From an uncultured Verrucomicrobiota bacterium (GTDB lineage: Bacteria > Verrucomicrobiota > Kiritimatiellia > RFP12 > UBA3636), in the NCBI GenBank assembly GCA_937911295.1, contig CALDQE010000025.1, forward strand, positions 47,750-111,749: a stretch of 64,000 nt of DNA, in the 5' to 3' direction. Below, piece after piece: positions 1,618 to 62,245 of this stretch. The notes beneath the pieces are model-generated. The model had not been told where the DNA came from. It saw nothing but the letters and a program-made list of their open reading frames with translations, and searched no databases. The translations under genes and the position numbers were made by a program. The first letter of the stretch is position 1. Every line of letters begins with the position of its first letter.

Positions 1618-2187
1618 TTATTCTTTAGTAATTTCTGACATATCGCTCCATACTACAAGACTTTTTTTTACGTCAATAAGTTGCAAAGACAATACATGAG
1701 AATACATATCTCCATTACGATAGCAACGATAAGTGCCTCTCAACAAATAATCTGCTGGTTGGCGAGAATCAAAAGCTTGTTGAGATGCAATGTCCATATC
1801 ATTTATTTTAGAATCTCTTGATATTTTAGATGCTAATTCTCGAGGATTAGTATCGGCAATAATTTCAAAAAGACCTGTCTCTTGAAGAGTTTTTAGCAAA
1901 TATTCTCTTACTAATCCTATTTCTCGAAATGATCTTCTGTTTGAAAAATTCGATATGCTATCTATTTGTAATGATGGTTTTTTATTTTTGTTTAATACCA
2001 CTTGCTCTTTGAAAGCTGCATCATCCTGCATTCTTTTAATCAGATCTACAACCATTGTTTCAATATCTGAAACGGTTATAGTTTCTGCAGTATTTAAACG
2101 CATACTATTTGAATTAACACGTTCCATATTTGCACCGCCTGCAACAACCACTGCGGACAAAAATAGTAGTGACAATAATATTTTCAT
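1618..2187 (-). CDS. LpoB-like periplasmic protein; a paralog of the next gene that has lost its lipobox cysteine
   Basis: It has a signal peptide, MKILLSLLFLSAVVVAGGAN, with Gly where the lipobox Cys would be. Blocks such as TMVVDLIKRMQDD and LQIDSISNFSNRRSFREIGLVREYLLKTLQETGLFEII resemble the C-terminal domain of E. coli LpoB (VDSVNNRTNGSL ... LRNALANNGKFTLVS). The C-terminus, VWSDMSEITKE, matches the paralog. Confidence 0.5.
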   Translation of the reverse strand: MKILLSLLFLSAVVVAGGANMERVNSNSMRLNTAETITVSDIETMVVDLIKRMQDDAAFKEQVVLNKNKKPSLQIDSISNFSNRRSFREIGLVREYLLKTLQETGLFEIIADTNPRELASKISRDSKINDMDIASQQAFDSRQPADYLLRGTYRCYRNGDMYSHVLSLQLIDVKKSLVVWSDMSEITKE

Positions 2188-2192
2188 ACTTT

Positions 2193-2786
2193 TTACTCCT
2201 TAGCAATCTCTGCAATTTCGCTCCATACCTGAAATCCTGTTTTTATGTCAATAAGCTTGAGTGTTAATTCATAGGTATATCTATCTCCATCTTCAAAAGA
2301 ACGGTAAATGCCATACATCTGATAATCTGCTGACTTATGAGTACCGAAAACTTGTAAATTATCGTCATTTTTTAGACCAACCTCCACATTCTTTGTTATG
2401 GATTCGGCAAGTGTTTCAGAAACTGATTCTTGAGAATTAGCATCATCCGTAATTTCAAATAGTCTTGTTTTGCGCAAGGCAATCTCTAATCTCTTTCTTG
2501 CAGAGTTGAGCTTTGGGATTATGCGCTCTTTTGCATGATTTTCAATATTTCCTATCTGCAACACCGGCTTAGCGTTTTTAGATGCTGCCAGCAAATCGTA
2601 ATGTTCTTTAAATGCTTCATCGTCTTGCATTTTTTCAACTAAATCTGCAACTGCCGTTTTTATATCATAAATTGTTTCATTACTTGCTTTATCGAAGTTA
2701 ACACTATTAGGATTTACATATCCGTGATTTGCACAGCCAGCGAATAATATTGCTGATAATGATAGTAGTGATAATATTTTTTTCAT
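2193..2786 (-). CDS. LpoB-like lipoprotein; tandem paralog of 1618..2187
   Basis: I moved the start to MKKILSLLSLSAILFAGC (lipobox LFAGC) at 2786. The longer ORF reaching 2963 would overlap the upstream gene. It shares TAVADLVEKMQDDEAFKE and a C-terminal VWSEIAEIAKE with its neighbour. Confidence 0.55.
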   Translation of the reverse strand: MKKILSLLSLSAILFAGCANHGYVNPNSVNFDKASNETIYDIKTAVADLVEKMQDDEAFKEHYDLLAASKNAKPVLQIGNIENHAKERIIPKLNSARKRLEIALRKTRLFEITDDANSQESVSETLAESITKNVEVGLKNDDNLQVFGTHKSADYQMYGIYRSFEDGDRYTYELTLKLIDIKTGFQVWSEIAEIAKE

Positions 2787-2799
2787 AATTTGTTCCTGT

Positions 2800-4440
2800 T
2801 TATTTACCGAAAACTGAGTTTTTTGGTTTGGATGAAGCTGAGTTATCATTTTTACGCTGTTGACCATAATTAGAATAAGGAGTTGTAGATTGCTCCACCG
2901 AAAAAACCTCTGGAGGTAAGTTAACTGTCCCAGTTGGAGTTGTATCTGCTCGAGAAGTTGCAAAACGCTCCACCTCTGCTCCTGTCATTGGTTTACCTGT
3001 TTGAGCATCGATTATGGACACAGAGCCGTCATCATTATACGAATAAGTAATCCCTGCATATTTAACATTCTTCTCTCTCAATTCTTGATTTATCTTATAT
3101 CCCCCCACATCAACTACACCATGAAATAGTGCCTCTTCCGGATTAGGATATTCATTATACGTACCCAATGTTTGTTTTAAATCAATTGTCCTTGTTTCTA
3201 AATTGTAAACTACTTCTTCTCCTGTGGAATTTTGAAATTTTGCATATTTTATACCTTTTTCACTATACTTTTCTAGGTATTGCTCTATTTGTTGGGGTTT
3301 TGTTATTCTTGTACTTGCGCTGAAAGCTTCTGCACCTACATCAGCACCCTCAAGAATACAAACTGCTACTGCACCAACGGGGCCACCAAAAACAGAACCT
3401 ACTAATCCACCTCCGACACATCCTAGAATAGTTCCCAATGCTGTTACTCCATTCTTCTTACTTTTCCGCTCTTCAAATTTGCTGACCGAGTTTATGTTGT
3501 CTGGTTGATGAAATTGATCTCCCAACACAAGACAAAAATCTCGTTGATTCCCATTACGAATCTCTCTCATCATATCGTCAGGAGTATAAGGAACAGCCAT
3601 ACCAATATTTTGTCCTTCATGTGTATTTGTCGCTATTTTAAATTTTTCCCGTTCATTAGCTCCAACAACTAAAACATCTTGCAATGAGCCTGACCATTCT
3701 TTCTTTGGGTCATAATTTGGGCTCCCCGGTTTATTGTATCTGAGTGCTTCTTTTAAGCCTCTTTCTTGATTTGGATTATAATTCTCTTTGAGAGTAGTGT
3801 TGTTTGTACCATCCTTATTACTAATTTTTTTTACCATATCAATTGCAGCGTCTATACCGTCAGATATTTTTTCCAAATTTTCCTCAACCGTTGGTTTTGG
3901 CTGTTCAACAGCAACTTCTGAAGAGGAACTATTAACACTTGGTATATCCAAGTTGGTTTGTGGCTTTTTGGTAGTAGTAGACGGTTTTGAAGTTGGTGTA
4001 CCTTGAGGCTTTGATGTTGGTGTACCTTGAGGCTTTGATGTTGTTTTAGGCTTTTGCTGATTAAGCTCGTTTCGAATATTTCCGAAATCAAGAACCATTT
4101 TTTCAAGTTCCATTCTACGTTTATTATCAGCAATTTTATCTTCAATAGTGTTTGGTGGAAGGATTTGAACTTGATTCTTACATTCTGTACACTCATAAAT
4201 CAGTATTCCAGAAATTACTCCTTGCTTTCTAACAAAGTTAAATGATAAACAATAATGCTTTTCTTCTAGACGTTTAAGATTTTGATTGAGGAGATTAGTA
4301 ACTGCTTCTTGTTCTTCTTGTGCTTGTTCTTGTGCTTGTTTTTCATCTATTGGTATAACTGGAGGAGCACCAAATGATAATGCTAGAGCGGAATTACAAA
4401 AAAACAATCCTAATATTGCGATTGTAATATAATTTTTCAT
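2800..4440 (-). CDS. Secreted protein with a PT-rich tandem-repeat linker and a C-terminal glycine-zipper segment
   Basis: It carries a signal peptide, MKNYITIAILGLFFCNSALA. The motif TSKPQGTP is repeated. A Gly-zipper stretch, LGTILGCVGGGLVGSVFGGPVGAVAVCILEGADVG, sits near the C-terminus. Its stop overlaps the next start by 4 bp (4437-4440). Confidence 0.6.
   Translation of the reverse strand: MKNYITIAILGLFFCNSALALSFGAPPVIPIDEKQAQEQAQEEQEAVTNLLNQNLKRLEEKHYCLSFNFVRKQGVISGILIYECTECKNQVQILPPNTIEDKIADNKRRMELEKMVLDFGNIRNELNQQKPKTTSKPQGTPTSKPQGTPTSKPSTTTKKPQTNLDIPSVNSSSSEVAVEQPKPTVEENLEKISDGIDAAIDMVKKISNKDGTNNTTLKENYNPNQERGLKEALRYNKPGSPNYDPKKEWSGSLQDVLVVGANEREKFKIATNTHEGQNIGMAVPYTPDDMMREIRNGNQRDFCLVLGDQFHQPDNINSVSKFEERKSKKNGVTALGTILGCVGGGLVGSVFGGPVGAVAVCILEGADVGAEAFSASTRITKPQQIEQYLEKYSEKGIKYAKFQNSTGEEVVYNLETRTIDLKQTLGTYNEYPNPEEALFHGVVDVGGYKINQELREKNVKYAGITYSYNDDGSVSIIDAQTGKPMTGAEVERFATSRADTTPTGTVNLPPEVFSVEQSTTPYSNYGQQRKNDNSASSKPKNSVFGK
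3973..4041 (-). repeat. In-frame 24-nt tandem repeat (ggtgtaccttgaggctttgatgtt, about 2.5 copies) that encodes the TSKPQGTP linker repeats
   Basis: The direct repeat is visible in the sequence between 3970 and 4050. Confidence 0.7.
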
Positions 4441-7435: not shown

Positions 7436-9544
7436 CTAATTTGATTTACCTACAAATATGTCTGGCCAACTGTCATTGGAGGTATTGTAGGTTATACGAA
7501 GAGTCTGTTTTGTCTCTACATTCATAAGAAATATCTCATAATCACAACTATCCTGCTCATGTCCTCCTGTACTTGCTCCATATACAAGCCAGTTACCATC
7601 CGGAGAAAAACGAGGGAAATACTCGTGACTAAAATCACTTTCTGAATCAAAAAATATTTTTCCTGGCGGATTTAATGCATCACACCAAAAGATGCTATTC
7701 TTTTGCTTGCCCGGATGGTTCATATATGCAAATTCTGTACTGCCGCTCTTTCTCCAAACTGCCTGACACCCAGAATCTATCTTTTGAAGCTTCTTCCCAT
7801 CCTTAGATATGCTTGCAATATAATTCATACGACCTCGAAGTGTTACAAGAAGGCTTGGCTCTGTATCATTTATATCTGGAATTGTAAGCTGTGTTCCTTC
7901 TAAAATTGGAGCAACTCCACTTTTTAATATTACTCTATCCTCTGTGGTAATAACACCATTTTTTTCAATTATTGTTGCTTGAACCAGCTCTGATGCGTCA
8001 TTACGCATAAAAACTACCGAATGCCCACTTGGATCCCAAACAGCCATAAACGCATTTGTTGCAAGCAAACACTCTTCCCCCTTTTCAAAATCGTACAAAT
8101 ATGTATCCCATTTACTCATATTTCTAAGGGATACCCATGGCTCTGTAGAACGAGAGAAAACAAATTTAGTTCCATCAGGAGAAAGCTTTGGATATGTATC
8201 TGTAAAGCCAGAATTAGTTAGGCGAGTAATTTCTCCAGAAGCAATATCCTGAGAATAAATACTATGCAAGCCATCCCTATTTGAACTCCACACAATTCTT
8301 CCCGCAAGTCCATTTAAAAATTCAGCCCTATGCTGAAGCTCTTCGGCAGGGATTTCTATACTACTACCCTTTGGTGGCGGGGTAAGGCGTCCTCCCTTCA
8401 CAAAGCTACGATACGACAAAAGTAAAAAGCCAAATGCTATTGCTATTGTGCTAAGCAATACTCCAGCACGTAGCATAGCTTGCCATGTGATTTTCTTATC
8501 GCATTTTGTCTTCTCAGCAATTTCTGCATTACTGTCTGTTTTCCAGACAAAAGCAATCAAAGATATAGCACCCAATGAATAATCGATAATTTGGCTAATA
8601 AAGTGCATTGCGAACATAGCAATTACAACAAACTTTAATGACGCTTCACCAAAGCCCATGAGCTTAAAAGCTGAGATACCACCAGTTTCATAAGTACCAA
8701 AGCTCATAAAAGAAGGAACTGGCAATGCTGCAGAGCCTTCAGCACCTATTAGAGCCAGAACCACCTGTGAGCTCGATGCTGCTGCCAATTCAGCAGAAAG
8801 AGGTATAACAACCGACTGAAACAAGAATAACAAACCAGCATATTTACATGCTCTTACACACACAGACAGGAGCAATACCTGTAAAAGCTTACCACTCTTT
8901 CGCACAGCAACAACAGAAGTGGCTGTATCTTCTAATAGATTAAACAGAGCAACCAAAAATTTTGGGAGCGATGTGAAGCGTGCTTTTATTCGAGCTGCAA
9001 GTTTACCAAAACAAGGTAAAATATAAAATATTCCAACACCCCCAATAATGCATAGCAATACTAGCATTATTACTGAGCCAAGTAGCGAAATACTATTGGT
9101 TGCCATTGGTAGAGCAACAGCAAATACTAATAATAATCCAATAAAATCAAAAAGCAAAGATATAGAAAGAGAAGAAAGACCATCGGCTACAGCAATGCCA
9201 CAGCCTCGCTTTAGCAGTGCAACATAGCTCAATTCACCTATTCTCGCAGGAAGCATATCTACAAAAGCTCCACGAACGAAGGTTACAAGAATCATTGGTG
9301 TGAGTTTTACTTCTGTACCAGCACTCTTGAGCAAAATCTTTGCTCTAATCGCTCTAAAGAAGGTCTGCAATATTTGGCAAATAAGGTATATTGCAACATA
9401 AAACATAACTGCTGATTTTGCTGCATCTACAATTGTAACAATAGACACATCCCCATTCTCGCCAGAAACAAGCTTAAGCAGTAAGCCTACAAGAATAATT
9501 GAAACGATAATTGAGGCAACAAATTTTATAATACTTTTCTTCAT
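7436..9544 (-). CDS. Fusion protein: an N-terminal polytopic flippase-like domain of the lysyl-phosphatidylglycerol-synthase TM type (UPF0104) joined to a C-terminal TolB-like (PD40) beta-propeller
   Basis: The first ~330 residues have multiple TM helices and a flippase-like pattern (FVRGAFVDMLPARIGELSYVALLKRGCG). The C-terminal half has PD40-like repeats: LSPDGTKFVFSRS, FSPDGNWLVYGAS and WSSNRDGLHSIY. Confidence 0.6.
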   Translation of the reverse strand: MKKSIIKFVASIIVSIILVGLLLKLVSGENGDVSIVTIVDAAKSAVMFYVAIYLICQILQTFFRAIRAKILLKSAGTEVKLTPMILVTFVRGAFVDMLPARIGELSYVALLKRGCGIAVADGLSSLSISLLFDFIGLLLVFAVALPMATNSISLLGSVIMLVLLCIIGGVGIFYILPCFGKLAARIKARFTSLPKFLVALFNLLEDTATSVVAVRKSGKLLQVLLLSVCVRACKYAGLLFLFQSVVIPLSAELAAASSSQVVLALIGAEGSAALPVPSFMSFGTYETGGISAFKLMGFGEASLKFVVIAMFAMHFISQIIDYSLGAISLIAFVWKTDSNAEIAEKTKCDKKITWQAMLRAGVLLSTIAIAFGFLLLSYRSFVKGGRLTPPPKGSSIEIPAEELQHRAEFLNGLAGRIVWSSNRDGLHSIYSQDIASGEITRLTNSGFTDTYPKLSPDGTKFVFSRSTEPWVSLRNMSKWDTYLYDFEKGEECLLATNAFMAVWDPSGHSVVFMRNDASELVQATIIEKNGVITTEDRVILKSGVAPILEGTQLTIPDINDTEPSLLVTLRGRMNYIASISKDGKKLQKIDSGCQAVWRKSGSTEFAYMNHPGKQKNSIFWCDALNPPGKIFFDSESDFSHEYFPRFSPDGNWLVYGASTGGHEQDSCDYEIFLMNVETKQTLRITYNTSNDSWPDIFVGKSN

Positions 9545-15667: not shown

Positions 15668-15820
15668 AAATGTAAATTATTATTTCGGATAAAATCGGTT
15701 AAATTTGATAAAACAAAATTTATATATAAATTTTATCACGAATAGGTCTAATAATCAATATTGAATAATCTTTCACGCTTATCCCGATTTTTAGGGGGAA
15801 ATAAGCACACACCAAAAACA

Positions 15821-15860
15821 ATAAACTCGCAAGTCTAATCACTTAGCAACTTGCGAGCTT
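15821..15860 (-). terminator. Rho-independent terminator after the coiled-coil gene pair
   Basis: A 9-bp inverted repeat, ctcgcaagt...acttgcgag, is followed on the minus strand by a T-rich run (tttattgtttttgg). Confidence 0.5.
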
Positions 15861-15887: not shown

Positions 15888-18800
15888 TTATTCCTCTGGC
15901 AATGTAATAAACATTGACCAGCTGATTACATACCAACCATTCTCAATACGTGTTAGAATTGTATTGCGACCTTTTCTTAGGTGAACCTTGCGGAAGCCCT
16001 CATTAATTCGCCAATATTTTAGTTCGTTAGTACTACTCCAAACCTTATAGTCGTTAATCCAAACGTCCATACGGTCATCACTACCAACGGCTACCCAGTA
16101 ATCACCCTCTTCTTCCATGAAGACCTCTGTGTATGCATACCAGATACCATACTGATCCTGAGACCATGGGCGAATCTCAGCACCACCATGTAGGTTATAT
16201 GCATTATACTCCCACTTGAGAATTTGTCCATCCTTACCAACGTAAGTTGCATCTAAATCAACCTTACTTTCTGGTGCAAACTTACGGGTCAGGTTAACGC
16301 GATTTGGATTAGGGAAAGGTCCAATAATATACCAATTTGAGATGCGGGCCCATTTTGCTGGCACACCAGAATTACCAATAAAGTTACCAGTTACTAAGCC
16401 CTCCATGCCTCTCTTCAAGGCAGGAACACCCATACCCTCTGCAGTACCGCCACGGACACCCTTTTCTGAAAGTCCCTTAACACCGGTCATATCCTCTGCT
16501 TTAACCTTTGTAGGAATCCATTTTGATGATCCAGCATTGCTTGATCTACCACCTAGCTTTGCATATGGGCTACCACCACGAGTATTATTCCCTTGTGAAT
16601 TAGAAGAAGCAGGATGCATGCTAGATTGAGCAAACTGCTGAGAGGTTCCTTGTCCATTTTGAGAACCCATTCGAGCATCTGCTTCAGCCATCATGCTAGA
16701 CAAATCCTTAGCCTGTTGAGAAGAATCCTCTGAGCCTGCTTCTTTAATTTCATTTGCCATATCAGAGAATTCATACATACGAGACAATCGCTCTTCGCGA
16801 GACATCGAACCTCCCTTAGAATAATTAGAATTATATCTATCTGGGAATACCATTACCTCAGCCTCAGCCATCACGCTCTTGGCAACAGCACTAATATTCT
16901 CTGCTTCACGAACAACCTTTGTCATCTCCTCACGCTTATTCAAGAACTCTTGCTCTGTTGAAGGCTCTGATGAAAGTAATGATTTATCAAACTCTGGGCG
17001 AATAGTTTTTGCAACATCTGTTATTTCAATCGCCTGAGATAATGGCATTTTTTGAGTAATTGCAAGCTCAGTAGCCTTTATATCACGATTCTTTTCTGCA
17101 ATCTGACTTTCTAGCTCCTTTGCCATTTCATAAGCTTCAGACAGAGGCAAGCGAGAAAGCATTGTATTTGCCAACTCAGGAGACTCCATTGTTGGGTCAG
17201 CAAAAGGCTCAGGTTGAGCGGATTCACTAGCGGCAAGCTTTGCAACATCCTTAACCATTTCCATCAATGCTTTTTGAGCTTCAGAAGCTTTATTATCCTT
17301 TTCATCAAGCTTCTTTGCCTTTTCTGCGGCAGCCTTTTCTAGTTCTTTCTTCTTTGCTTGAAGCTCTTCTGTATACTTCTTCGAGCGCTCCTCTTGGCTC
17401 TTCTTGTGATTCAAATCACGCTCAGCATTTGAAAGAGAAATCTGAGCATTACGATCCTTTTGTCTAGCAGAATTTAGCTGATCATTCTTTTGACGAAGGT
17501 TAGACTCAGCTTCATTGCGAGAGGTTTGAGCAGCCTTTTGTGATTGCTCTGCAGCAGTATATTGCTCCTTCTTTTCTTCAAATTTTTGCTTAGCCTCTGC
17601 CTGTTTTTGTTGTGCTTCTGCAAGCATCTTTTCACGTTGCTCACCAATCTTCTTCTCACTAGCCAGCTCGCGCTCACGGCCTTTAGTCCTTTCAGAGGCA
17701 TTGTGATGCTCCTGCCTAGCTTGGTCTGCAGCACGTTTTGCATTATTCTGCTTATTATTAGCATCATTTAAAGCATTCTTGCTAGCATTGCTATTTTTCT
17801 CAGCCTCTTGCTTATTCTTTTCAGCTTGGGCTAGCTCCTGATTTGCTTTATCAAGCATCTGCTTTTTCTCAGCTTCTGACTTTTTAGCATTTTCGAGATT
17901 TGCTTTTGCTTTGGCGATTTGCTCTTCGCTTTTCTGTTGATTCTTCTGAGCATCCGCTAGCTCACGTTCGCTCTTTTTAGTAGCTTCGTTAGCACGGTTC
18001 AATTCATTTTTAGCATTTTCTGCAGAACGCTTTGCTTCATTTAATTTATTATTAGCATCATTTAAAGCATTCTTGCTATCGTTACTCTTTTTCTCTGCGT
18101 CTTGCTTTTGTTGCTCAGCTTGAGCAAGCTCTTGATTTGCTTTATCGAGCTTTTGCTGTTTTTCTGCTTCAGCCTTCTTAGCACTTTCTAGCTCACGCTC
18201 TGCATTTGCTGTTTTATCCTTTGAAGCCTTTAACTCATCCTGACGCTTTTTCGCCTCATTATCCTTATTGCGGGCATCATTTTCAGCTTGATTACGCTCA
18301 TTTCGAGCCTTATTCAATTCATTATTGGCATTATTAGACTTTTGGTTAGCCTCATTACGTTGCTTTTCTGCTTCTTGCTTCTGTTGCTCTGCTTGCGCAA
18401 GCTCCTGAGCTGACTTTTCCTTTTCTTGGCGTTTTTCTTCTAAAGTCTTTTCAGCTTTTTCACGATTTGGCTTATATTCATTTTCAAACTTTTCTGCTTC
18501 CTTCTTTTGCTCCTCATAATTAGCATTTATAAGCTCATTATCCTTACGCAAATCCCAAACCAACTGCTTACTTTCTGCTTGAAGAGCATTTACCTCTTGC
18601 TGTGTCTTAAAGGCAGTTTGAGCTGCCTTTGTGGTTTTCTCCATTCCCGTAATTTCAGCCTTAGCAGCAATAACATCAAGCAAATTCTGGGCTAATGCTT
18701 GTGCTTGCTCGGCATCCTTAAAGCTTTGTTCATTCTTGTTTACAGCATTTGCGATTTGCTGGACAGCCTCTTGAGTTGCTGCTTGCTCTTGCATATCAGC

Positions 18801-19319
18801 AAGATCCTCGATAAAGGCTTCTGACTCTTGCTGATTTTCAAGGCTTACCTCTTGCTGCTCAATAACAGCCTCAAAAAGCTGCTCCATCTCAGACTTAACT
18901 TGCTCTGACTCCTGCTGAGCCATTTCATCATAATCCTTTAGAAGTTCATTCTTCATAAACTCCATATTGTGGAGGATTGTTTGTAGCTCCTCGAGATATT
19001 GAGCAATCTCATTTTCTCTTGCTTCCTCTACCTCTTCAGCAAGATCCTGTAGCTGCTCCTCGCTCATACGAGAAAGCTGTGATGGGGACTCCTGCTTCTT
19101 TTCTTTGATAATAATCTCACGTAGAGGTGTAAAAATCACCAAAAGAATAAATCCTATAATATGGAGAATCAATGATAATGTGGGCCAAACAGCCGCCATT
19201 CGGCGCTGAACCTTTTGTCTCTCTTTAATATCATCAGAGAAGAGCTTATGTGTAGTAGCATCGTGATTATCATTTGTGCTTTGTTTTGTATCTATATCGT
19301 TATTGAAATTTTCACTCAT
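15888..19319 (-). CDS. Giant protein of 1143 aa: a TonB-like signal anchor, about 900 aa of coiled coil with roughly 100-aa internal repeats, and a C-terminal PA14-like domain
   Basis: The anchor, RRMAAVWPTLSLILHIIGFILLVIF, compares with E. coli TonB WPTLLSVCIHGAVVAGLLY and carries the SxxxH motif. The C-terminus has AVGSDDRMDVWINDYKVWSS...LRKGRNTILTRIENG, which resembles the PA14 core. It is a paralog of 19341..21791. Confidence 0.65.
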   Translation of the reverse strand: MSENFNNDIDTKQSTNDNHDATTHKLFSDDIKERQKVQRRMAAVWPTLSLILHIIGFILLVIFTPLREIIIKEKKQESPSQLSRMSEEQLQDLAEEVEEARENEIAQYLEELQTILHNMEFMKNELLKDYDEMAQQESEQVKSEMEQLFEAVIEQQEVSLENQQESEAFIEDLADMQEQAATQEAVQQIANAVNKNEQSFKDAEQAQALAQNLLDVIAAKAEITGMEKTTKAAQTAFKTQQEVNALQAESKQLVWDLRKDNELINANYEEQKKEAEKFENEYKPNREKAEKTLEEKRQEKEKSAQELAQAEQQKQEAEKQRNEANQKSNNANNELNKARNERNQAENDARNKDNEAKKRQDELKASKDKTANAERELESAKKAEAEKQQKLDKANQELAQAEQQKQDAEKKSNDSKNALNDANNKLNEAKRSAENAKNELNRANEATKKSERELADAQKNQQKSEEQIAKAKANLENAKKSEAEKKQMLDKANQELAQAEKNKQEAEKNSNASKNALNDANNKQNNAKRAADQARQEHHNASERTKGRERELASEKKIGEQREKMLAEAQQKQAEAKQKFEEKKEQYTAAEQSQKAAQTSRNEAESNLRQKNDQLNSARQKDRNAQISLSNAERDLNHKKSQEERSKKYTEELQAKKKELEKAAAEKAKKLDEKDNKASEAQKALMEMVKDVAKLAASESAQPEPFADPTMESPELANTMLSRLPLSEAYEMAKELESQIAEKNRDIKATELAITQKMPLSQAIEITDVAKTIRPEFDKSLLSSEPSTEQEFLNKREEMTKVVREAENISAVAKSVMAEAEVMVFPDRYNSNYSKGGSMSREERLSRMYEFSDMANEIKEAGSEDSSQQAKDLSSMMAEADARMGSQNGQGTSQQFAQSSMHPASSNSQGNNTRGGSPYAKLGGRSSNAGSSKWIPTKVKAEDMTGVKGLSEKGVRGGTAEGMGVPALKRGMEGLVTGNFIGNSGVPAKWARISNWYIIGPFPNPNRVNLTRKFAPESKVDLDATYVGKDGQILKWEYNAYNLHGGAEIRPWSQDQYGIWYAYTEVFMEEEGDYWVAVGSDDRMDVWINDYKVWSSTNELKYWRINEGFRKVHLRKGRNTILTRIENGWYVISWSMFITLPEE
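17550..18413 (-). repeat. Three diverged in-frame tandem repeats of about 300 nt (roughly 100 aa each) inside the coiled-coil gene
   Basis: The protein repeats ANQELAQAEQQKQ(D/E)AEK(K/N)SN(D/A)SKNALNDANNK...AKR. The DNA segments at about 17741-17880 and 18040-18180 are visibly similar. Confidence 0.65.
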
Positions 19320-19340
19320 ACGGAAAATCCTCTTTTTTGA

Positions 19341-21791
19341 TTATTTTGTTAAATTATTTTCTAGTGCTATGCAAATAGACCAGCCGAAATTCCAATGTCC
19401 ATTTTCTACACGTGCCAATATTTTATTTCTGCCCTTGCGTAGAAGAACCTTACGAAAACCTTCATCAATTCTCCAAGCCTTTAAGACATCGGAGCTAGTC
19501 CAGACCTTAAAATCATTTATCCAAATATCAGAGCGATCATCGCTACCTATTGCCAGCCAAGCCTCACTCTCTTCCTCCATAAAAATCTCGGTGTATGCAT
19601 ACCAAATTTCATATTCACCAGAATATTCTGGAAGAACCATTGACTCCTTTGCATCTGGCTTTTGCCAATGATCTTTTTGCTGAGTAGCTGTTGCCTGAAC
19701 ATATTCCCATTTGATGGTTCTACCACCCTTACCGATATATGTGGCATCTAAATCAACCACGCTTTCCGGTGCAAATTTACGGGTAAGATTAACGCGATTT
19801 GGATTATCAAATGGACCAATGACATACCAATTATTTACATATCCCCAAATTGCTGGTACGCCATCTGAGCCAAAGATATTACCAGGTTCAAGACCTGGCA
19901 TTCCAGGCTCAAGCTTTCCTATACCTTTCAGACCCGTTTTTCCGCCAGGCACTGAGACTAGCTTTGTCTTCCCGTCCTGTTTTTCCATATCATACGTTTT
20001 TTCAGAAATAGCCTCTGGAGGCTGAGATTCTGCTAACTCTTCTGCTTGACGCATTAACTCAGCCAAATCCTTCTCTCGGTTCTGCTCATCCTCTGCACCT
20101 GCTTCAGCAATTTGATTTTGAAGCTCAGCCAAGTCATTCATACGCTTCAATCTATCATCTTTAGATTCTGCAAAATCCGCTCCATGCTGCTGTGGCTCAA
20201 TGAGAAGTGCGGCTTCAAGCATTACCTGCTTTGATTTAGTAAGAATATCCTCTGTTTCTCGGACAACCTTAGTCATCTCCTCGCGCTTTTCAACAAATTG
20301 AGCTTCTGTTTGTGGATTTGAATTCAAGATTTCTTTTTTAAATTCTGGGCGTTCTGTTTTAGCAACATCAGTAATATTTTCCGCCATTTTCATCGACATC
20401 TTTTGATTGATAGCCAATTCAGTGGCTTTGATATCGCGATTCTTTTCAGCAATTTGCTGTTCGAGCTCCTTTGCTTTCTCATAAGCATCTGCCAGTGAAA
20501 TATAGGAAAGATTTACATTAGCAAGCTCTGGAGAAGTCATTTTCTCATCAGCAAGAGGTTCTGGCTTTGGCTCTTCATTTTTTGCAAGCTCAGCAATCTC
20601 TTTTACATGCTCAAGGAGTTCCTTTTGAGAGGAAGAGGCCTTATTTTCTAGCTGTTCTAGGCGATTTATTCGCTCTTGGACCTCTTTTTCAACCTTTACA
20701 AGCTCATTAGACTTATTTTCCTTGTGCTTAGTGGTATCCTCCATTGCCTTCTGCTTACCAGCAAGGGATCTTTTAGCATGCTCATATTCCTTTTTTGCTT
20801 TATCGCGCTGCCCTTTTGCATGATTAAATTTATGCTGAGCATCCTTTTTCTCTTTCTGAGTTACGTCTTTATTTTGGGCAAGCTCTTTATTTACTTTTTC
20901 AGCCTCTACAAGAGCCTCTTCTTTAGCCTTTAATTCCTCAGTCTTTTCCGTCACCTTTTGTTCAGCTGTGGCCACATCCTGTTTGTGAAATTCTTCAAGC
21001 TTTTTCTCTGCATCAGCTATATTCTTTTTCAAATCGATTTGAACTGCATTTTTTGAACGAACTTCAAATAGCTTTTGGCGAGTTTCTGCTTGAAGTTCAT
21101 TTATTTCCAGCTGTGTTTTTCTTGCAAGCTCAGTTGCATCAGCTGTTTTTTTCATTTCTGTAATTTGGGCCTTAGCCACAATTACATCTAGGAGATTTTG
21201 TGCGATTGCTTGCGAATTCTCAACCTCCTTGAGAGCATTTTCTGTATCAGTAATTTTTTGGGCTACCTCAGTAGCAATCATAGAAACATCTTGTTTCTCC
21301 AAGTTAACGACCTGCTCAATGACCTTTTCAATTTCGTTTTGGAGTTCAGCACTTTTTGTTTGCTTCTCAATAACTTTATCAAAAAGCTGCTGGACTTCAG
21401 ATTTAACTTCTACAGCTTCCTGCTGAGCAAATTCATCATAGCTCTTCAGAAGCTCATTTTTCATAAACTCCATATTATGGAGAATAGTTTGTAATTCAAT
21501 AAGATATTGAGCAATTTCGTTCTCTCTAGCAAGCTCAATTTCCTTTGACAAATCCTCAATTTCTTCAGCACTTACACGAGATAGCAAAGAAGGTTGAGGT
21601 TTCTTTTCAATAATAATTTCCTTAAGTGGAGTAAAAATAACGAGAGCAACAAATCCTAGAAGATGGAGAACAAAAGACAAAATAGGCCACAAAAGAGCTA
21701 GCTGGCGTTGCCTACGCTGCCTTTCTTTTATATCATCAGAAAAGAGACGTGTATCACAATCCTTTTCTATTTTTTCTCTTTGTGTTTCCAT
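19341..21791 (-). CDS. Paralog of 816 aa with the same architecture: TonB-like anchor, coiled coil, C-terminal PA14-like domain
   Basis: The anchor is LALLWPILSFVLHLLGFVALVIF (SxxxH). It shares the N-terminal block NEIAQYL.ELQTILHNMEFMKNELLK and the C-terminal block WY.IGPF.NPNRVNLTRKFAPES.VDLDATY...GSDDRSDIWINDFKVW with 15888..19319. Confidence 0.65.
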   Translation of the reverse strand: METQREKIEKDCDTRLFSDDIKERQRRQRQLALLWPILSFVLHLLGFVALVIFTPLKEIIIEKKPQPSLLSRVSAEEIEDLSKEIELARENEIAQYLIELQTILHNMEFMKNELLKSYDEFAQQEAVEVKSEVQQLFDKVIEKQTKSAELQNEIEKVIEQVVNLEKQDVSMIATEVAQKITDTENALKEVENSQAIAQNLLDVIVAKAQITEMKKTADATELARKTQLEINELQAETRQKLFEVRSKNAVQIDLKKNIADAEKKLEEFHKQDVATAEQKVTEKTEELKAKEEALVEAEKVNKELAQNKDVTQKEKKDAQHKFNHAKGQRDKAKKEYEHAKRSLAGKQKAMEDTTKHKENKSNELVKVEKEVQERINRLEQLENKASSSQKELLEHVKEIAELAKNEEPKPEPLADEKMTSPELANVNLSYISLADAYEKAKELEQQIAEKNRDIKATELAINQKMSMKMAENITDVAKTERPEFKKEILNSNPQTEAQFVEKREEMTKVVRETEDILTKSKQVMLEAALLIEPQQHGADFAESKDDRLKRMNDLAELQNQIAEAGAEDEQNREKDLAELMRQAEELAESQPPEAISEKTYDMEKQDGKTKLVSVPGGKTGLKGIGKLEPGMPGLEPGNIFGSDGVPAIWGYVNNWYVIGPFDNPNRVNLTRKFAPESVVDLDATYIGKGGRTIKWEYVQATATQQKDHWQKPDAKESMVLPEYSGEYEIWYAYTEIFMEEESEAWLAIGSDDRSDIWINDFKVWTSSDVLKAWRIDEGFRKVLLRKGRNKILARVENGHWNFGWSICIALENNLTK

Positions 21792-21913
21792 TTTTCTAAT
21801 TTCGATTATCTTCTAAAATAGGTTGAATAATCTGGAGGCATTTCATTGCTCAATATCAAGGCAATGAAAGCACTCCAGAACTAACCAATAGGGAAAAAAG
21901 CTTAATACAACTA

Positions 21914-22333
21914 TTATTTAAACTTTTCACCTGGATCAGTATGAATACCGACTACACCAATGCCTTCAGCTTTGCAGGTATCCATTACCTGCACAATGAA
22001 TCTAAATGGTGCATACATATCACCAGAAATACGAATGCGTCTATCTGGGTTCTCAGCCATAGCTGTTTTCAGAGCGACACGTAGTCCTTCTGCACCAACT
22101 GGTTGAGAATTTATGTAAAACTTTCCATACTTATCTACACCGACAGTAACCATATCAGATGTTGCCTTAACCTTTAGGGAAAGATCTGAATGTGGGAGCT
22201 TAAGTTCAAGCTCCTTCTCAACCTTTTTCATTTGAGAGGAGACAAGGAAAAAGATAAGCAAAAGAAAAACGCAGTCAATTAGCGGTGTCATCTGTATATC
22301 TACAGACTCTTCTTCGTTATGTTTAATTGCCAT
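21914..22333 (-). CDS. exbD: ExbD/TolR-family biopolymer transport protein
   Basis: MAIKHNEEESVDIQMTPLIDCVFLLLIFFLVSS has the classic ExbD N-terminus. The protein is 139 aa. Confidence 0.8.
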   Translation of the reverse strand: MAIKHNEEESVDIQMTPLIDCVFLLLIFFLVSSQMKKVEKELELKLPHSDLSLKVKATSDMVTVGVDKYGKFYINSQPVGAEGLRVALKTAMAENPDRRIRISGDMYAPFRFIVQVMDTCKAEGIGVVGIHTDPGEKFK

Positions 22334-22403
22334 ATACGTACCTCTTATGGATAAAAATCAAAATTAAAGTTAAATTATTTGGGGAACCAAACAATTCAAA
22401 AGC

Positions 22404-23222
22404 TTATATATTACGTTGTACGAACAGGTTATTGATAATATCATTTACCTCTTCTTCTAGGAAGATTGCGTAAAGATTTAGCTTATTTTTAATAAAATTG
22501 TAGATAAACAAGCAAGGCATAGAGATAGCCAAGCCGGCAACAGTTGTTACTAGAGCCTTACCAATATCATCAGCAAGAATACTTGGGTCACCCATTTCAC
22601 CAACAGCAGCAACTGTTTGGAAAGCACCTAGCAAACCAACAACAGTACCGAAAAGACCTAGTAGAGGGGCAATTGTTGCAACAGTTGAAAGCATAGAAGA
22701 CTTACGATTCTCAAGACGGAGCTCACGACCAGCCTTATCTTCAGCGAATACCTTTACTTGCTGATAGTCTGCTGCATCCTTATGCTCAAGCATTGTTTCA
22801 ACAACGCGAGCAAGGGCACTCTTATTTTTAGCACAATATTGGCGAATATCTTCAAACTGTTCATTCTTCCAAAGGGTGATAACGTGGCTAGAGAAGCCAT
22901 CTGGAACGATTCTGCTACGGCGTAGAGTACAAGCACGCTCGATTGCACAACCAAGACCTAGTACAGAAAGGAGGCCCAACCAATACATAGTGGAACCACC
23001 CTGCTCAATCTGATGGACTAAGCTTTGAAATTTTGTTTTTGTCTCATTGTTTTTTGCATCTGAGCTATTAGAATCTGTAGAAGCACTATCTGTTAGATTT
23101 GTTTCCGTAGCGGAAGCAGTTAGATTTGTATCAGTTGCGGTTGAAGTTGCAGCATCATTAGCAAAAGCAAACATAGCAGCACTAGCGACGCTTAGAGCAA
23201 TTAGAGTTGTTTTTATTTTCAT
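22404..23222 (-). CDS. exbB: MotA/TolQ/ExbB-family proton channel with an N-terminal signal peptide and an S/T-rich extension
   Basis: It contains the C-terminal TM helices and the ExbB core MYWLGLLSVLGLGCAIERACTLRRS. The extension reads ATSTATDTNLTASATETNLTDSASTDSNSSD. Confidence 0.75.
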   Translation of the reverse strand: MKIKTTLIALSVASAAMFAFANDAATSTATDTNLTASATETNLTDSASTDSNSSDAKNNETKTKFQSLVHQIEQGGSTMYWLGLLSVLGLGCAIERACTLRRSRIVPDGFSSHVITLWKNEQFEDIRQYCAKNKSALARVVETMLEHKDAADYQQVKVFAEDKAGRELRLENRKSSMLSTVATIAPLLGLFGTVVGLLGAFQTVAAVGEMGDPSILADDIGKALVTTVAGLAISMPCLFIYNFIKNKLNLYAIFLEEEVNDIINNLFVQRNI

Positions 23223-23617
23223 TTTATTTTCCTTATTGATTAGTTTTATTATTATAAATTGATAAATGCATACCTATAGTAGCACCCTTGAAATTAGCAT
23301 AATTCATGCCACAAAAAACAAACTGACACAAAATATATTGTTTTGAGGGGAAAATAAAGTAGTTTTGACACAAAATTACAAATACGAGCACCTGCTTAAG
23401 TGTATACAACAGAACACAGTTTCGTAATTTACATACAAAAATAGGCATACTGATTGTGTTTTCCATAGGGTTAAAGACAGAAAGGGCGAAGGGAGTGGCA
23501 GTGTAAGCTCTGTGCAAGGCGAAAAGGTCTGCTCTGCTGTTGTATCAATCCTCTTAGTATCACCACACAAGTATCGTGCCTTATACACCCGCCAGCGAGC
23601 CAATCGTGTAAATAAAA

Positions 23618-23652
23618 AAAAGGCGTAAGCCGAAGCCTACGCCTTTTTGTAT
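23618..23652 (-). terminator. Rho-independent terminator immediately after oadB
   Basis: The sequence aaaaaaaaggcgtaagccgaagcctacgcctttttgtatttt is a hairpin flanked by an A-run and a T-run, and it could work in either direction. Confidence 0.55.
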
Positions 23653-30073: not shown

Positions 30074-31387
30074 TTAGAATTTAAGCATTATCTCCCAACG
30101 AAGAAAATATGCGGTCTTGCCTGAATTATAATAATCATCTGGATCAAGAACCTCACCCAAAACATAACAATTCACATTGTCTAACAATGGAAAAGAATAT
30201 TTTGCTGTGCCCAACCAACCACGGTTTGAGCCACCTCCTGCGCCATTCTTCTCTTCTGCAAAAAGAGGTCCTGCCGTTAGCTTAACCTTATGCTTATTTT
30301 CAAAGGTGTAGCCAGTCTCCAAATAACATTGCAATAAATTATTCCATGTGCCTACACCATCACCATCATAAGCAAAAATCATTAGCTCGCTAATCCAAGG
30401 ATATCGCCCAAATAGAACATTAAAGTCCTCACGCTCATCTGTGCTGTCGGAATCGTCTCCACTCATATAAACAGCATTTGCAGAAACATAAAATCCAGCA
30501 GCTGGGTCAATTGTATATTTCAAGCCTCCGCAAGCAAACAATGCATTGCGGTCATAATCTGTAGATTCACCATATTGATAAGCAAGCTCTAAATCTGCAG
30601 AAAATTCATCAGAAAACTTTGGCTTCAAATAAAATCCAGCAGTATGAATATCCTCATTATCCTGATAATCACCCTTTGCATTTACCCATGCGGTATCGTG
30701 CTTCCACACATAATAAACACCATATTCACAAGCAGCATTTGCTCTGTCAGAATAAAACACACCAGCAGCTACTTCATCCATTGAATTGTAGCCACCCGCA
30801 TAGCCTGTAACATCGCGATGCTCATGACCAATCGCCAATTCATCCTCACATTGAGTATAAAAACCAAAAATATCAAGCACGCGCTTCTCTGCAATTGGAA
30901 AGGTTAGGCGAACACCATCAAAATATGAGCTACGAGAGCCATCCTTAGCTGTACCATCGGCAAACAATCTACCACTGCCTAGCACCGCATCTTGGCGTCC
31001 AATTCGAAGCACTGAACCATCAACAAACAAATCTTTAATAGTTAAATAAAGATTATCTAGCACTAGCTCATCTGGAAATTTATAGGATTCCTGACCAACA
31101 TTCTTATGGCGAAATTCATTTATCAAGCGAAAATCAAGCGAGGTATTTATTTCCTTAAAAGCTACGCCACCCCAAGCTCTAGGACGAATACGAAAATAAT
31201 TATTATTTCCTCCACGAGTTACTCCGCCTGGCATTATTGGGATATTATCAAATGCTTCTTGTCGAAGCCTTAAATCGGCACCATAACGAAATTCAACAGC
31301 CTTCGCTTCCTCTAGCTTTGGCTCCTGTGCTCCCATCAATGCACTTGTCACCCCTGCCACAACACCTAACAAATATCTTTTCATCAT
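30074..31387 (-). CDS. Probable outer-membrane beta-barrel protein (porin-like)
   Basis: It has a signal peptide, MMKRYLLGVVAGVTSALMGAQE, alternating amphipathic beta-strand-like segments, and a C-terminal aromatic residue (EIMLKF). Confidence 0.45.
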   Translation of the reverse strand: MMKRYLLGVVAGVTSALMGAQEPKLEEAKAVEFRYGADLRLRQEAFDNIPIMPGGVTRGGNNNYFRIRPRAWGGVAFKEINTSLDFRLINEFRHKNVGQESYKFPDELVLDNLYLTIKDLFVDGSVLRIGRQDAVLGSGRLFADGTAKDGSRSSYFDGVRLTFPIAEKRVLDIFGFYTQCEDELAIGHEHRDVTGYAGGYNSMDEVAAGVFYSDRANAACEYGVYYVWKHDTAWVNAKGDYQDNEDIHTAGFYLKPKFSDEFSADLELAYQYGESTDYDRNALFACGGLKYTIDPAAGFYVSANAVYMSGDDSDSTDEREDFNVLFGRYPWISELMIFAYDGDGVGTWNNLLQCYLETGYTFENKHKVKLTAGPLFAEEKNGAGGGSNRGWLGTAKYSFPLLDNVNCYVLGEVLDPDDYYNSGKTAYFLRWEIMLKF

Positions 31388-44518: not shown

Positions 44519-46219
44519 ATGAAAAATAAAACACAGACGCTCGCTAGATACCCTCTTCTTGTACCCGCAATCATATTCTCAATAGGCACAGCAATTGGTT
44601 GTAGCCTATTTGTAAATCCATATCCATACTTATATGCGAGCATCGGCTGTTTTATTCTTTATATTTGCATACTGCCCTGGCTAAAAAAAATGCGCTGCGG
44701 AGAGCGATTAGGTTCATTTCTTATTTACCTAATATTGTTTATTACAGCCCTCGCAAATGCTATCTATACTAGGCAAGTTCAAGTATATGACTTTGAGACA
44801 ATTCTGGAAATCGCTGAAGAGCATAGCGATGCGACATTTGTGGGAAGAATCACAGAAGCCCCACGCCGTTTTACTACAAAACGCGGCACTGGTGGCGTTA
44901 GCTTCAAATTTAACATCTATGAAATACCTGATGATTTCGGTGGCATTCAAATCACACCTACTGAGCTAGATGTAGTCTGGTTTGGGCCAAAGACAATCGG
45001 CACACTTGAGTCATCTATCCCATTGGCTGTGCTAGGAGATGGGTGGCAATTGCATGGGAAACTTCAGCATGAGATTGATCGCTATGGGAATGACAAGCTC
45101 AAGTTAACCATTAGTGGCAATGACAAGCAATGCTTTAGGGTTGATAAATACGATTTACCATTCCCTCTATCAGCCTTATCCTCTATGCGTAGCTATGCCT
45201 CTGAGTTGCTTTCACTTGGAGAGTACGGGCATTGGCAAAACTCATCAATTGTAAAAACTATGGTATTAGGATATGGTACAGATATTCCATATAAAACACG
45301 CCAGATTTTTCAGCAATCTGGCACTGTTCATGTCTTCGCTATATCGGGCTTACATGTGGGTATTGTGGCAACAATCATTGTTATGGTGTTGTCAGTATTT
45401 AGATTAAATCCAATTCTTAGAACAGCGATTTTCTCAGCCATAATTATTGCATACACCATCGCTACTGGGGCAAGTCCAAGCACGGTTCGAGCCTGCATTA
45501 TGTCACTCATCTTTTACTCGTCCATTATTGTTGGTCGTCGCACTATGCTGCTAAGCACGATTGCAGCAACAGCAATAATAACTCAAGTAATTAACCCATT
45601 ACAAATTACAAACATAGGCTATATTCTTTCCTTTGTATGTATTTTAGGAATTGCGATATTTGCACCACCTTTTATTGGCTTAACGGAGCGGCTAAAAGAG
45701 TCGTTAGCAATGGCAATAGAGAGTCGCAGGATTCAGCGAGAGATAGAGCGTTCAAGCGATATAATTTCTGACCTTGAGCAAACAAAAAAGCAGAAGCGAT
45801 TCAGCTGGCTCAAAGAGAATTTTTTCATACGGGTATTCGTAGAAGCACTTCGACAAATACCGGAGGGATTTGCTGTTAGTTTAGCAGTTTTTATTGCATC
45901 AATTCCTGCTACTGGATATTTATTTGGGCAGATAACACCAGCCAGTATTTTTTGCAATATTTTAGTTATACCGCTTGCATTTTTCATTGTTGTAACAGCC
46001 GCATTATCAATGCTTTGCGGGATTGTTTCGTATGAGCTTGCGATAATTTTCAATTTAGCGAATGTAGCATTTACAGATTGGCTTGTAACGATTGCAGAGC
46101 TTGGTGCGGGGTTACCTGGAGCAACAATACAGCTCAAGGAGTGGACGCTTTCTGCAACAATTATATCTAGTGCGATAATTTTATTTTTAGCTTTGTTAAT
46201 TCGCCCTCTTAAGAGATAG
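44519..46219 (+). CDS. comEC: ComEC/Rec2-family DNA internalisation channel protein with no C-terminal metallo-beta-lactamase domain
   Basis: VHVFAISGLHVGIVATII is the competence-domain signature. The protein is polytopic and 566 aa long. Confidence 0.75.
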   Translation: MKNKTQTLARYPLLVPAIIFSIGTAIGCSLFVNPYPYLYASIGCFILYICILPWLKKMRCGERLGSFLIYLILFITALANAIYTRQVQVYDFETILEIAEEHSDATFVGRITEAPRRFTTKRGTGGVSFKFNIYEIPDDFGGIQITPTELDVVWFGPKTIGTLESSIPLAVLGDGWQLHGKLQHEIDRYGNDKLKLTISGNDKQCFRVDKYDLPFPLSALSSMRSYASELLSLGEYGHWQNSSIVKTMVLGYGTDIPYKTRQIFQQSGTVHVFAISGLHVGIVATIIVMVLSVFRLNPILRTAIFSAIIIAYTIATGASPSTVRACIMSLIFYSSIIVGRRTMLLSTIAATAIITQVINPLQITNIGYILSFVCILGIAIFAPPFIGLTERLKESLAMAIESRRIQREIERSSDIISDLEQTKKQKRFSWLKENFFIRVFVEALRQIPEGFAVSLAVFIASIPATGYLFGQITPASIFCNILVIPLAFFIVVTAALSMLCGIVSYELAIIFNLANVAFTDWLVTIAELGAGLPGATIQLKEWTLSATIISSAIILFLALLIRPLKR

Positions 46220-46295
46220 TAAGCCATCATTTAGACTTCGTAGTCTGCAAAAGCAAATAACACCCAAATTTTTCTATACTATATAATAAAGAGAC

Positions 46296-47831: not shown

Positions 47832-47834
47832 GGC

Positions 47835-48374
47835 ATGAGTATGTCAACAAAGGATAAACAATTGCTTGTGGTAATTGCACTAATACTGCTCTTTGGCATA
47901 ACCCTCGCAAACTTTAGGAAATGTGCCGATAATATCGCTATTAAGCAACGCTCTCTCAAGACAGCAGAAGAAAATATCTCAATGCAAAAGGAGCTTATTG
48001 CAGCAAAGGATATTTGGGCTAAGCGATATGAAGACAAAAAGCCTTTAATGCCTGTCTTTAATGTAGACGACCAGGTGGACACATATTGGCTTAACATTAT
48101 GGACCTTGCAGCCGAAAGGCATGGTGTAAAAATTCGTAATCGCCACTCTGGCACAGAGACCAAGGTTAGTGATGTTTATGAATTTCCAATCGAGGTTAAA
48201 GATTGGGAAAGCGAGCTAGAACCATTTGTAAACTTTATGTATGCACTACAAGCAGAAGGGGCAATGCTTGATATTAGAACACTAACAATTACCCCAATTG
48301 CAAACAAGCCCGGTTTGTTAAAAGGCTCATTCGTCTTATATTGTGCATATATGCGAAGTGATTCAGCGGAATAA
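47835..48374 (+). CDS. PilO/GspM-like inner-membrane assembly protein
   Basis: An N-terminal TM helix, LLVVIALILLFGITLANF, is followed by a coiled coil and a small C-terminal domain. It lies between the GspL-like gene and the secretin gene. Confidence 0.4.
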   Translation: MSMSTKDKQLLVVIALILLFGITLANFRKCADNIAIKQRSLKTAEENISMQKELIAAKDIWAKRYEDKKPLMPVFNVDDQVDTYWLNIMDLAAERHGVKIRNRHSGTETKVSDVYEFPIEVKDWESELEPFVNFMYALQAEGAMLDIRTLTITPIANKPGLLKGSFVLYCAYMRSDSAE

Positions 48375-48400
48375 ATTTTATTTATATTTAGGGTGACAAT

Positions 48401-62242: not shown

Positions 62243-62245
62243 TAT

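Follow-up and report, generated by a model that had tools for sequence, protein, structure and literature searches.

A Ton/Tol-class motor gene pair followed by two long, putatively motor-coupled periplasmic proteins with a predicted sugar-binding-type head

A 64,000-nucleotide (nt) stretch of DNA from an uncultured gut Verrucomicrobiota bacterium of the Kiritimatiellia (contig CALDQE010000025.1; this whole stretch is hereafter the window) carries four open reading frames (ORFs) at positions 15888–23222, all on the minus strand. In gene order they are an ExbB-like gene (22404–23222; 272 amino acids (aa)), an ExbD-like gene (21914–22333; 139 aa) and two long paralogues, which we call A (19341–21791; 816 aa) and B (15888–19319; 1143 aa), with intergenic gaps of 70, 122 and 21 nt. 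An earlier note on this DNA had described a same-strand run of ExbB, ExbD and two long, TonB-anchored coiled-coil proteins with a PA14-like end, and our ORFs coincide exactly with the four genes that it listed.

Upstream of the cluster, a strong intrinsic terminator (23617–23648, minus strand; a 14-bp stem with 6 GC pairs, then a T-run) ends the preceding oxaloacetate-decarboxylase genes, so that the four-gene cluster begins its own transcription unit. Past the last stop codon, where the earlier note had placed the only terminator of the cluster, we find a terminator-like hairpin with a T-run (~15811–15860, minus strand), recognized by folding energy (−24.8 kcal/mol) and by comparison with shuffled sequences (z −3.9; 0 of 200 shuffles fold equally well); a consensus terminator scan overlooked it because of its long loop. 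Terminator-like sites within the cluster genes were disregarded, as these are short, weak stems in coding sequence. The layout thus fits a single transcription unit. The ~390-nt spacer between the upstream terminator and exbB (23223–23616) is a possible site for the promoter or regulatory region of the four genes; it gave no Rfam match, and its sole ORF is a 94-aa, TTG-start frame without coding evidence. No riboswitch or other RNA was found by an Rfam scan of the whole window.

The two motor subunits were readily placed at the level of protein family, as the earlier identification of ExbB and ExbD had implied. The ExbB-like protein (22404–23222), pentameric by class, matched MotA_ExbB (PF01618; E 3.6e-26; 91.8 bits, cut-off 22.9), and the ExbD-like protein (21914–22333), dimeric by class, matched ExbD (PF02472; E 1.8e-28; 99.6 bits, cut-off 25.4). 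Both failed the NCBIfam equivalog models, the former scoring 60 bits on TolQ (cut-off 221) and 48 bits on ExbB (cut-off 206), the latter 62 bits on TolR (cut-off 127) and 43 bits on ExbD (cut-off 216). With scores below these cut-offs, the pair is, as judged from sequence, a motor of the Ton/Tol class that is assignable to neither ExbBD nor TolQR. The Asp and Thr residues of the proton path are retained. Alignment with ExbD of structures 6TYI and 7AJQ matched TPLIDCVFLLL of our protein to TPFIDVMLVLL, with the essential proton-carrying aspartate kept as D20, and alignment of the ExbB-like protein with E. coli TolQ and ExbB structures showed the pore threonines to be conserved as T193 (in GLFGTV) and T227 (in TTVAGL), aligned to TolQ T145 and T178. 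The N-terminus of the ExbB-like protein is signal-peptide-like and carries in addition a Ser/Thr/Asn/Asp-rich extension of ~50 residues. We also considered a Zorya-like or other MotAB-based anti-phage system, and rejected it as none of the four cluster proteins had a match in a PADLOC scan.

A and B are paralogous, as had been proposed, with 43% identity over both the N-terminal part (A residues 15–406) and the C-terminal part (A 261–810; E 1e-148 and 7e-80). Scans of A and B against Pfam, NCBIfam and PADLOC returned no family match, and their N- and C-terminal pieces, scanned separately, likewise stayed below threshold; weak matches to DUF6756, DUF6377, SMC and spidroin families were attributed to composition or chance. 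Close homologues come from Kiritimatiellae metagenome-assembled genomes (MAGs), mostly of ruminant and other animal guts, and carry only the name ‘hypothetical protein’.

Each paralogue begins with a TonB-type anchor, quoted in the earlier note as WPILSFVLHLLGF for A and WPTLSLILHIIGF for B, and both strings are present. The transmembrane (TM) helix of A (residues 34–54; 21630–21692, minus strand) contains S39-x3-H43-x6-L50-x3-T54 followed by P55, and that of B (residues 42–64; 19128–19196, minus strand) contains S49-x3-H53-x6-L60-x3-T64 followed by P65. Both therefore have the full S-x3-H-x6-L-x3-(S/T) pattern, beyond the SxxxH on which the earlier comparison with TonB had drawn. This pattern, the SHLS motif, is the route by which TonB and TolA bind their motors (PMC12204202). 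It is also a property of the family (described below): of 112 distant representatives with a TM helix at the N-terminus, taken from clusters at 50% identity, 106 have S-x3-H within that helix. Judged from 100 of these representatives, the surrounding positions are conserved too: W occupies −4 in 79% of them, L/I/V +11 in 90%, T/S +15 in 52% and P +16 in 65%. The TM helix of A is followed by P55 and a beta-prone LKEIIIE segment, a candidate motor box; across the family a conserved TP-x-R-E-(I/L)-(V/L) follows the helix and gives way to a Pro/Glu/Lys-rich stretch. Its position matches that of the motor box of TonB and TolA, which is a beta-strand in the disordered segment directly past the TM helix. 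On the other side of the membrane, the cytoplasmic tail is ~33 residues long and has the conserved basic motif LFSDDI(K/R)ERQ(R/K).

Naturally split members of the family bear on its topology. The long protein is encoded by two genes at ~21 of 78 loci (roughly a quarter), and we read three of these in detail (L063:3467–6477, L064:3974–6489 and L054:4094–6471; about 18 others exist besides), from a Haloferula isolate, a complete Planctomycetes genome and a Verrucomicrobiia genome. In all three the two genes overlap by 4 nt, the first encoding the SHLS anchor and helices and the second a Sec signal peptide, the middle domain and the beta-sandwich; signal-peptide forms are also present among the cluster representatives. 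Because the head half has a signal peptide and basic residues precede the TM helix, rod and head of the family are placed by sequence in the periplasm, as in TonB and TolA. The split point depends on lineage: some Kiritimatiellae and Verrucomicrobia have it within the helical region, and in Planctomycetes it immediately precedes the middle domain. This suggests independent fission or fusion events. These natural split forms are ready-made constructs for biochemistry.

The region that follows the anchor had been read as one continuous coiled coil of 570 aa in one paralogue and 900 aa in the other, forming a stalk possibly tens of nanometres long. The Ala/Lys/Glu/Gln-rich composition on which that reading drew holds (A residues 75–405: 17% E, 15% K, 10% A, 9% Q, no Pro, 2 Gly; B residues 85–700: 1 Pro, 3 Gly), but the predicted architecture differs. 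An AlphaFold2 model of A, built from a 99-sequence alignment (mean predicted local distance difference test score (pLDDT) 88.4; predicted template modelling score (pTM) 0.77), has the TM helix at residues 34–53, then a bundle of four helices and three turns at residues 75–405 (20577–21569, minus strand), with helices at 75–165, 169–210, 214–306 and 312–405 (91, 42, 93 and 94 residues). A Pro-containing linker (residues 406–432), a conserved helical middle domain (residues 433–590; 20022–20495, minus strand) and a disordered linker (residues 594–622) follow. The helical part of A is therefore predicted to be an antiparallel, folded-back bundle with a separate helical middle domain; from its longest helices of 91–94 residues the bundle would be ~13–14 nm long, and a single stalk of tens of nanometres is likely wrong for this paralogue. 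Low occupancy and insertions in the family alignment coincide with the predicted turns (~166–170, 211–213 and 299–311), giving independent support for a segmented, folded-back bundle over a continuous coiled coil.

Paralogue B is laid out like A, but with ~300 extra helical residues and a longer Ser/Gly/Asn/Gln-rich linker ahead of its head. Global alignment and an offset scan placed the insertion at ~residues 295–590 of B (17550–18437, minus strand), and the extra residues all fall between A positions 250 and 372, that is, at the third and fourth helices. A sliding-offset score detected degenerate protein repeats of 91–98 aa in this insertion; a DNA tandem-repeat search and self-BLAST of B showed no repeats. 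A natural variant, P0034, is 89% identical to B and shorter by exactly 98 aa, or one unit. Short-read contigs that carry A terminate inside B, and the B gene is probably often mis-assembled or truncated in metagenomes. With rods of unequal length on a shared motor, the two paralogues could extend to different depths or work jointly.

Both paralogues end in a shared domain of ~175 aa, larger than the ~150 aa first estimated, with a common core of GSDDR(S/M)D(I/V)WIND(F/Y)KVW ... LRKGRN.IL.R.ENG. In A it comprises residues 634–810 (19362–19892, minus strand) and in B, by alignment to A, ~residues 975–1140 (15900–16397, minus strand). The domain is a beta-sandwich in the model of A and was also modelled in isolation (pLDDT 74.7), and a Foldseek search gave E ~2e-4 to a mix of glycoside hydrolase (GH) family GH2 enzymes, PA14-containing GH3 enzymes and a PA14-type adhesin. 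We therefore describe the head as a predicted galactose-binding-domain-like or PA14-like beta-sandwich of the sugar-binding type. It is not a TonB C-terminal domain by profile, as the isolated C-terminus gave no Pfam or NCBIfam match to TonB_C (PF03544) even at E up to 10. The polar residues N663, R666, D751, D752, K771, E777, N789, R794, E796 and N797 (A numbering) are invariant, suggesting a conserved binding site. A giant lipoprotein-like protein of 3178 aa, P0078, contains seven weaker copies of the head beta-sandwich interleaved with CarboxypepD_reg-type domains; these copies have weak matches to beta-galactosidase and GH2 galactose-binding families and to PA14, and so the head domain occurs also outside the motor context.

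Word-index protein searches with the C-terminal domain of A, or with its profile, returned only fragments named ‘hypothetical protein’. The family was brought to light by an exhaustive search with a profile hidden Markov model (HMM) of the head against 1.84 billion cluster representatives (50% identity), which matched 4,955 clusters at E ≤ 1e-3, at least 1,647 clusters at E ≤ 1e-10 and 491 clusters at E ≤ 1e-30. The typical member is 650–950 aa long, with the head domain at the extreme C-terminus. A and B are not exceptional members of the family, a point that weakens the earlier reading. When one genome per species was scanned, relatives turned up in 473 stretches, from 473 species genomes, mostly from phyla of the Planctomycetes–Verrucomicrobia–Chlamydiae (PVC) superphylum. 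The best 78 loci of these 473, to which our locus-level counts refer, belong to Kiritimatiellae, Lentisphaerae/Victivallales, Verrucomicrobia, Planctomycetes (Planctomycetia, Phycisphaerae and Brocadiia), Sumerlaeota, KSB1 and Armatimonadota.

Gene order is conserved across these relatives: each of the 66 loci whose upstream sequence is long enough has exbB and exbD immediately upstream of the long gene and in its orientation. No conserved neighbour besides exbB and exbD was found in the 78 loci, and apparent recurring neighbour clusters proved to be antisense ORFs. Flanking genes differ even between 65%-identical relatives, and some loci have glycoside hydrolase genes (GH20, GH16 and cellulase) next to the module. 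A tandem arrangement of two long genes, as in our window, was seen in only six loci, from Kiritimatiellae-type gut and rumen MAGs. One genome holds two copies, at loci L020 (contig CACYNF010000085.1) and L046, of which one has both motor genes and the other is split and preceded by ~1.4 kb without exbB or exbD; orphan copies of the long gene away from a motor therefore exist.

Together, the motor class, the conserved motor-binding motif, the strict three-gene linkage and the periplasmic placement of rod and head point to a motor-driven periplasmic protein. We think it probable that the cluster is one operon, encoding a Ton/Tol-type proton motor and two paralogous anchored periplasmic proteins that take the role of TonB or TolA. 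Each paralogue would dock on the rim of the ExbB ring by the S-x3-H-x6-L-x3-T face of its N-terminal TM helix. Next would come a short segment of Pro and charged residues that includes a beta-prone stretch (TP-L-[KR]-E-I-I-I), in the place of the TonB/TolA motor box. Beyond it would stand a rigid antiparallel helical bundle, ~13–14 nm long in A and longer in B by virtue of the 91–98-aa repeat units, then the helical middle domain and the flexible linker, with the galactose-binding-domain-like or PA14-like beta-sandwich as the C-terminal head. Proton flow would move or pull the anchor, and the motion may be passed to whatever the head holds. As target we favour an envelope glycan (peptidoglycan or a polysaccharide linked to the outer membrane) or an outer-membrane partner, in a Tol-like coupling of the energized inner membrane to the outer layers.

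Several observations weigh against this proposal. In a structure-based sequence alignment, K222 of the ExbB-like protein replaces TolQ Glu173, a position that we take to be that of ExbB Glu176. The post-membrane segment appears in the monomer model of A as a short helix (pLDDT 65–72) with no beta-strand, and docking on ExbB is read from motif and synteny. A TonB or TolA may be encoded elsewhere in the genome, beyond the 64 kb in view. If helices 3 and 4 form a hairpin, lengthening of the kind seen in B would extend the distal tip, with the head not moved outward. The earlier description of the head as PA14-like was right in its fold type, a beta-sandwich of the sugar-binding kind, and too strong in its naming of PA14: Pfam PA14 (PF07691) did not match A or B and matched 1 of 29 family members at E 0.032, and the best match of the family profile in the PDB, the PA14 region of anthrax protective antigen, was non-significant (E 0.37). 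Sequence profiles of the head reached no carbohydrate-binding family, so that sugar binding is suggested by the predicted fold.

Other explanations of the cluster have to be considered against this background. The module may serve glycan capture and uptake, with the head seizing polysaccharide at the outer membrane or across it and the motor reeling it into the periplasm, in place of the TonB–SusC route that is largely missing in these PVC polysaccharide degraders. Such a role would suit the fold of the head, whose nearest matches are the sugar-binding domains of glycosidases and PA14 lectin domains, the concentration of the family in PVC lineages that include known polysaccharide degraders, and the GH20, GH16 and cellulase genes at some loci. 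Published observations also count in its favour: no genes for TonB-dependent polysaccharide uptake were reported for Kiritimatiella glycovorans (PMC5148204), and Planctopirus is described as bringing whole macromolecules into its periplasm by an unexplained route (PMC13450696). We nevertheless regard uptake as unlikely, since the 78 loci show no consistent link of the module to a glycoside hydrolase, an outer-membrane pore or another gene, its neighbours in our window are housekeeping genes, the head is tethered in the periplasm with no candidate conduit through the outer membrane found, and the sugar-binding motif of the head is putative. A sensor or scaffold, in which bundle and head would sense an envelope or environmental glycan and gate or localize the ExbBD channel, in the manner of periplasmic four-helix-bundle sensors and RsgI-type anti-sigma factors, would give a purpose to the conserved basic motif of the cytoplasmic tail. 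That tail, however, is short and has no recognizable output domain, the split forms have no link from head to cytoplasm, and driven partners are marked by just such an SHLS motif and strict linkage with both motor genes, all of which makes this reading quite improbable.

A surface motility or adhesion machine of the Agl–Glt kind, whose motor would shift the rods laterally so that they push envelope or surface components, has a precedent in Myxococcus, where a motor of the Ton/Tol type works with non-TonB partners; gliding was also raised as a possibility for the von Willebrand A (vWA) transducer systems of PVC bacteria by their authors (PMC12204202). The absence of linked Glt-like outer-membrane or periplasmic components, the lack of a TonB_C-like domain in the paralogues and the occurrence of the family in many anaerobes that, judged by taxonomy only, do not glide render it very improbable here. 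We consider it most improbable, finally, that this is an ordinary Ton system with its real TonB encoded elsewhere and the long proteins unrelated envelope proteins behind exbBD. In other bacteria tonB often lies away from the exbBD genes, and our view is limited to 64 kb of the genome; yet the synteny with exbBD in every one of the 66 assessable loci, which come from several phyla, the motor-binding motif conserved in the anchor and the translational coupling of the split-form genes would be hard to square with unrelated proteins, and a Kiritimatiellota representative has been reported to have neither TonB nor TolA (PMC12204202).

As a motor-driven protein in the sense proposed above, each paralogue resembles TonB in its N-in, single-pass anchor with an S-x3-H-x6-L-x3-S-type motif, in a gene adjoining exbB–exbD and in a periplasm-spanning middle with a globular C-terminal head; as with TonB, one motor could serve paralogous transducers. 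The middle is, however, predicted to be a Pro-free helical bundle in contrast to the proline-rich rod of TonB, a predicted ~175-aa beta-sandwich stands in place of TonB_C, no TonB-dependent receptor was found among the scanned ORFs of the window, and the proteins are 3–5 times as long as TonB. They have in common with TolA an SHLS anchor and a middle domain that is alpha-helical; the TolQ/TolR models give the motor subunits slightly higher scores than the ExbB/ExbD models do, and a role in envelope maintenance would be possible in lineages reported to lack TolA or Pal. Unlike TolA, they lack a domain III, carry an additional conserved middle domain and a sugar-binding-like head, and have a helical part that is predicted to fold back; no tolB, pal or cpoB occurs in the window or at related loci.

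The closest precedent that we found is a family of SHLS-anchored proteins with a vWA head, described in the 2025 survey of periplasmic force transducers by Williams-Jones et al. (PMC12204202). The same survey reports no discernible TolA or TonB in Tichowtungia aerotolerans (Kiritimatiellota), states that no Pal is known in Planctomycetes and lists one Lentisphaerae genome as ‘tolQ-tolR-???- No TolA found’ (PMC12204202). Like the proteins here, the vWA transducers are neither TonB nor TolA, have an SHLS TM helix, adjoin tolQR-like genes and occur in the same phyla, and the Tichowtungia locus has two transducer genes. That ‘two transducers’ locus was considered as a member of the present family and rejected, as it belongs to the vWA family (PMC12204202). 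The two families differ in their heads (vWA against beta-sandwich), in domain II, which in the vWA proteins is ~100 disordered or Pro-rich residues, and in gene content: the vWA locus has a gene for a tetratricopeptide repeat (TPR) protein and two different TolR-like genes (PMC12204202), whereas our cluster has only one exbD and lacks a TPR gene. A transducer with a beta-sandwich head is mentioned nowhere in the survey, its supplement included (PMC12204202). Myxococcus GltG and GltJ, which work with AglRQS, are likewise TonB-like anchored proteins served by a Ton/Tol-type motor in a function other than import, but they retain TonB_C-like domains and belong to a large set of Glt proteins, none of which is linked to the module here. 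The N-terminal sugar-binding domain of GH2 enzymes and PA14, for their part, have no significant sequence-profile match from our head, which sits on a membrane-anchored rod and not in an enzyme, toxin or adhesin. The earlier note had called the architecture undescribed, and within the limits of the literature covered we found no published description of it. The module thus looks like an undescribed class or variant of the Ton/Tol kind with a transducer-like partner.

Elsewhere in the window, 38 of the 46 listed ORFs, each of at least 150 aa, were scanned, the others being the four cluster genes, hisF and nested ORFs; these 38 included no TonB, TolA, TonB-dependent receptor, TolB or Pal. Some genes away from the cluster are recorded for their own sake. 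About 6 kb downstream of it, a 702-aa protein (7436–9544, minus strand) joins a membrane region of the lysyl-phosphatidylglycerol-synthase type (PF03706) to PD40 TolB-like beta-propeller repeats, an unusual pairing. Two neighbouring genes at 1618–2963 (minus strand) encode LpoB-like lipoproteins (PF13036, a family of peptidoglycan-synthase activators), and an Alginate_exp-type outer-membrane porin is encoded at 30074–31387 (minus strand). A cluster at 44519–51184 (plus strand), resembling type II secretion or type IV pilus genes, includes genes for a competence protein like ComEC and a protein like PilN, a small ORF and the gene of a secretin of 927 aa. A tandem pair of genes for TrkH-family cation transporters lies at 60866–63637 (plus strand).

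The family may also be looked at from the biology of its hosts. How Planctomycetes and related bacteria, without TonB-dependent transporters, bring intact polysaccharides and further macromolecules into the periplasm is a puzzle of long standing, and A, B and their relatives might be the energized component of that uptake: a proton-driven fishing rod with a lectin-like head and a length tuned by repeats. We rate this idea as distinctly unlikely; if true, it would add a third head type to the motor-driven periplasmic proteins, after the TonB/TolA C-terminal domain and vWA. To our knowledge, Ton and Tol are the only well-understood routes by which energy is delivered to the outer envelope of diderm bacteria, and both were thought to rely on one transducer family until vWA-headed transducers were proposed in 2025. 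Here, the same motor and anchor motif appear joined to a third kind of partner, one that is widespread, unannotated and concentrated in the PVC superphylum.

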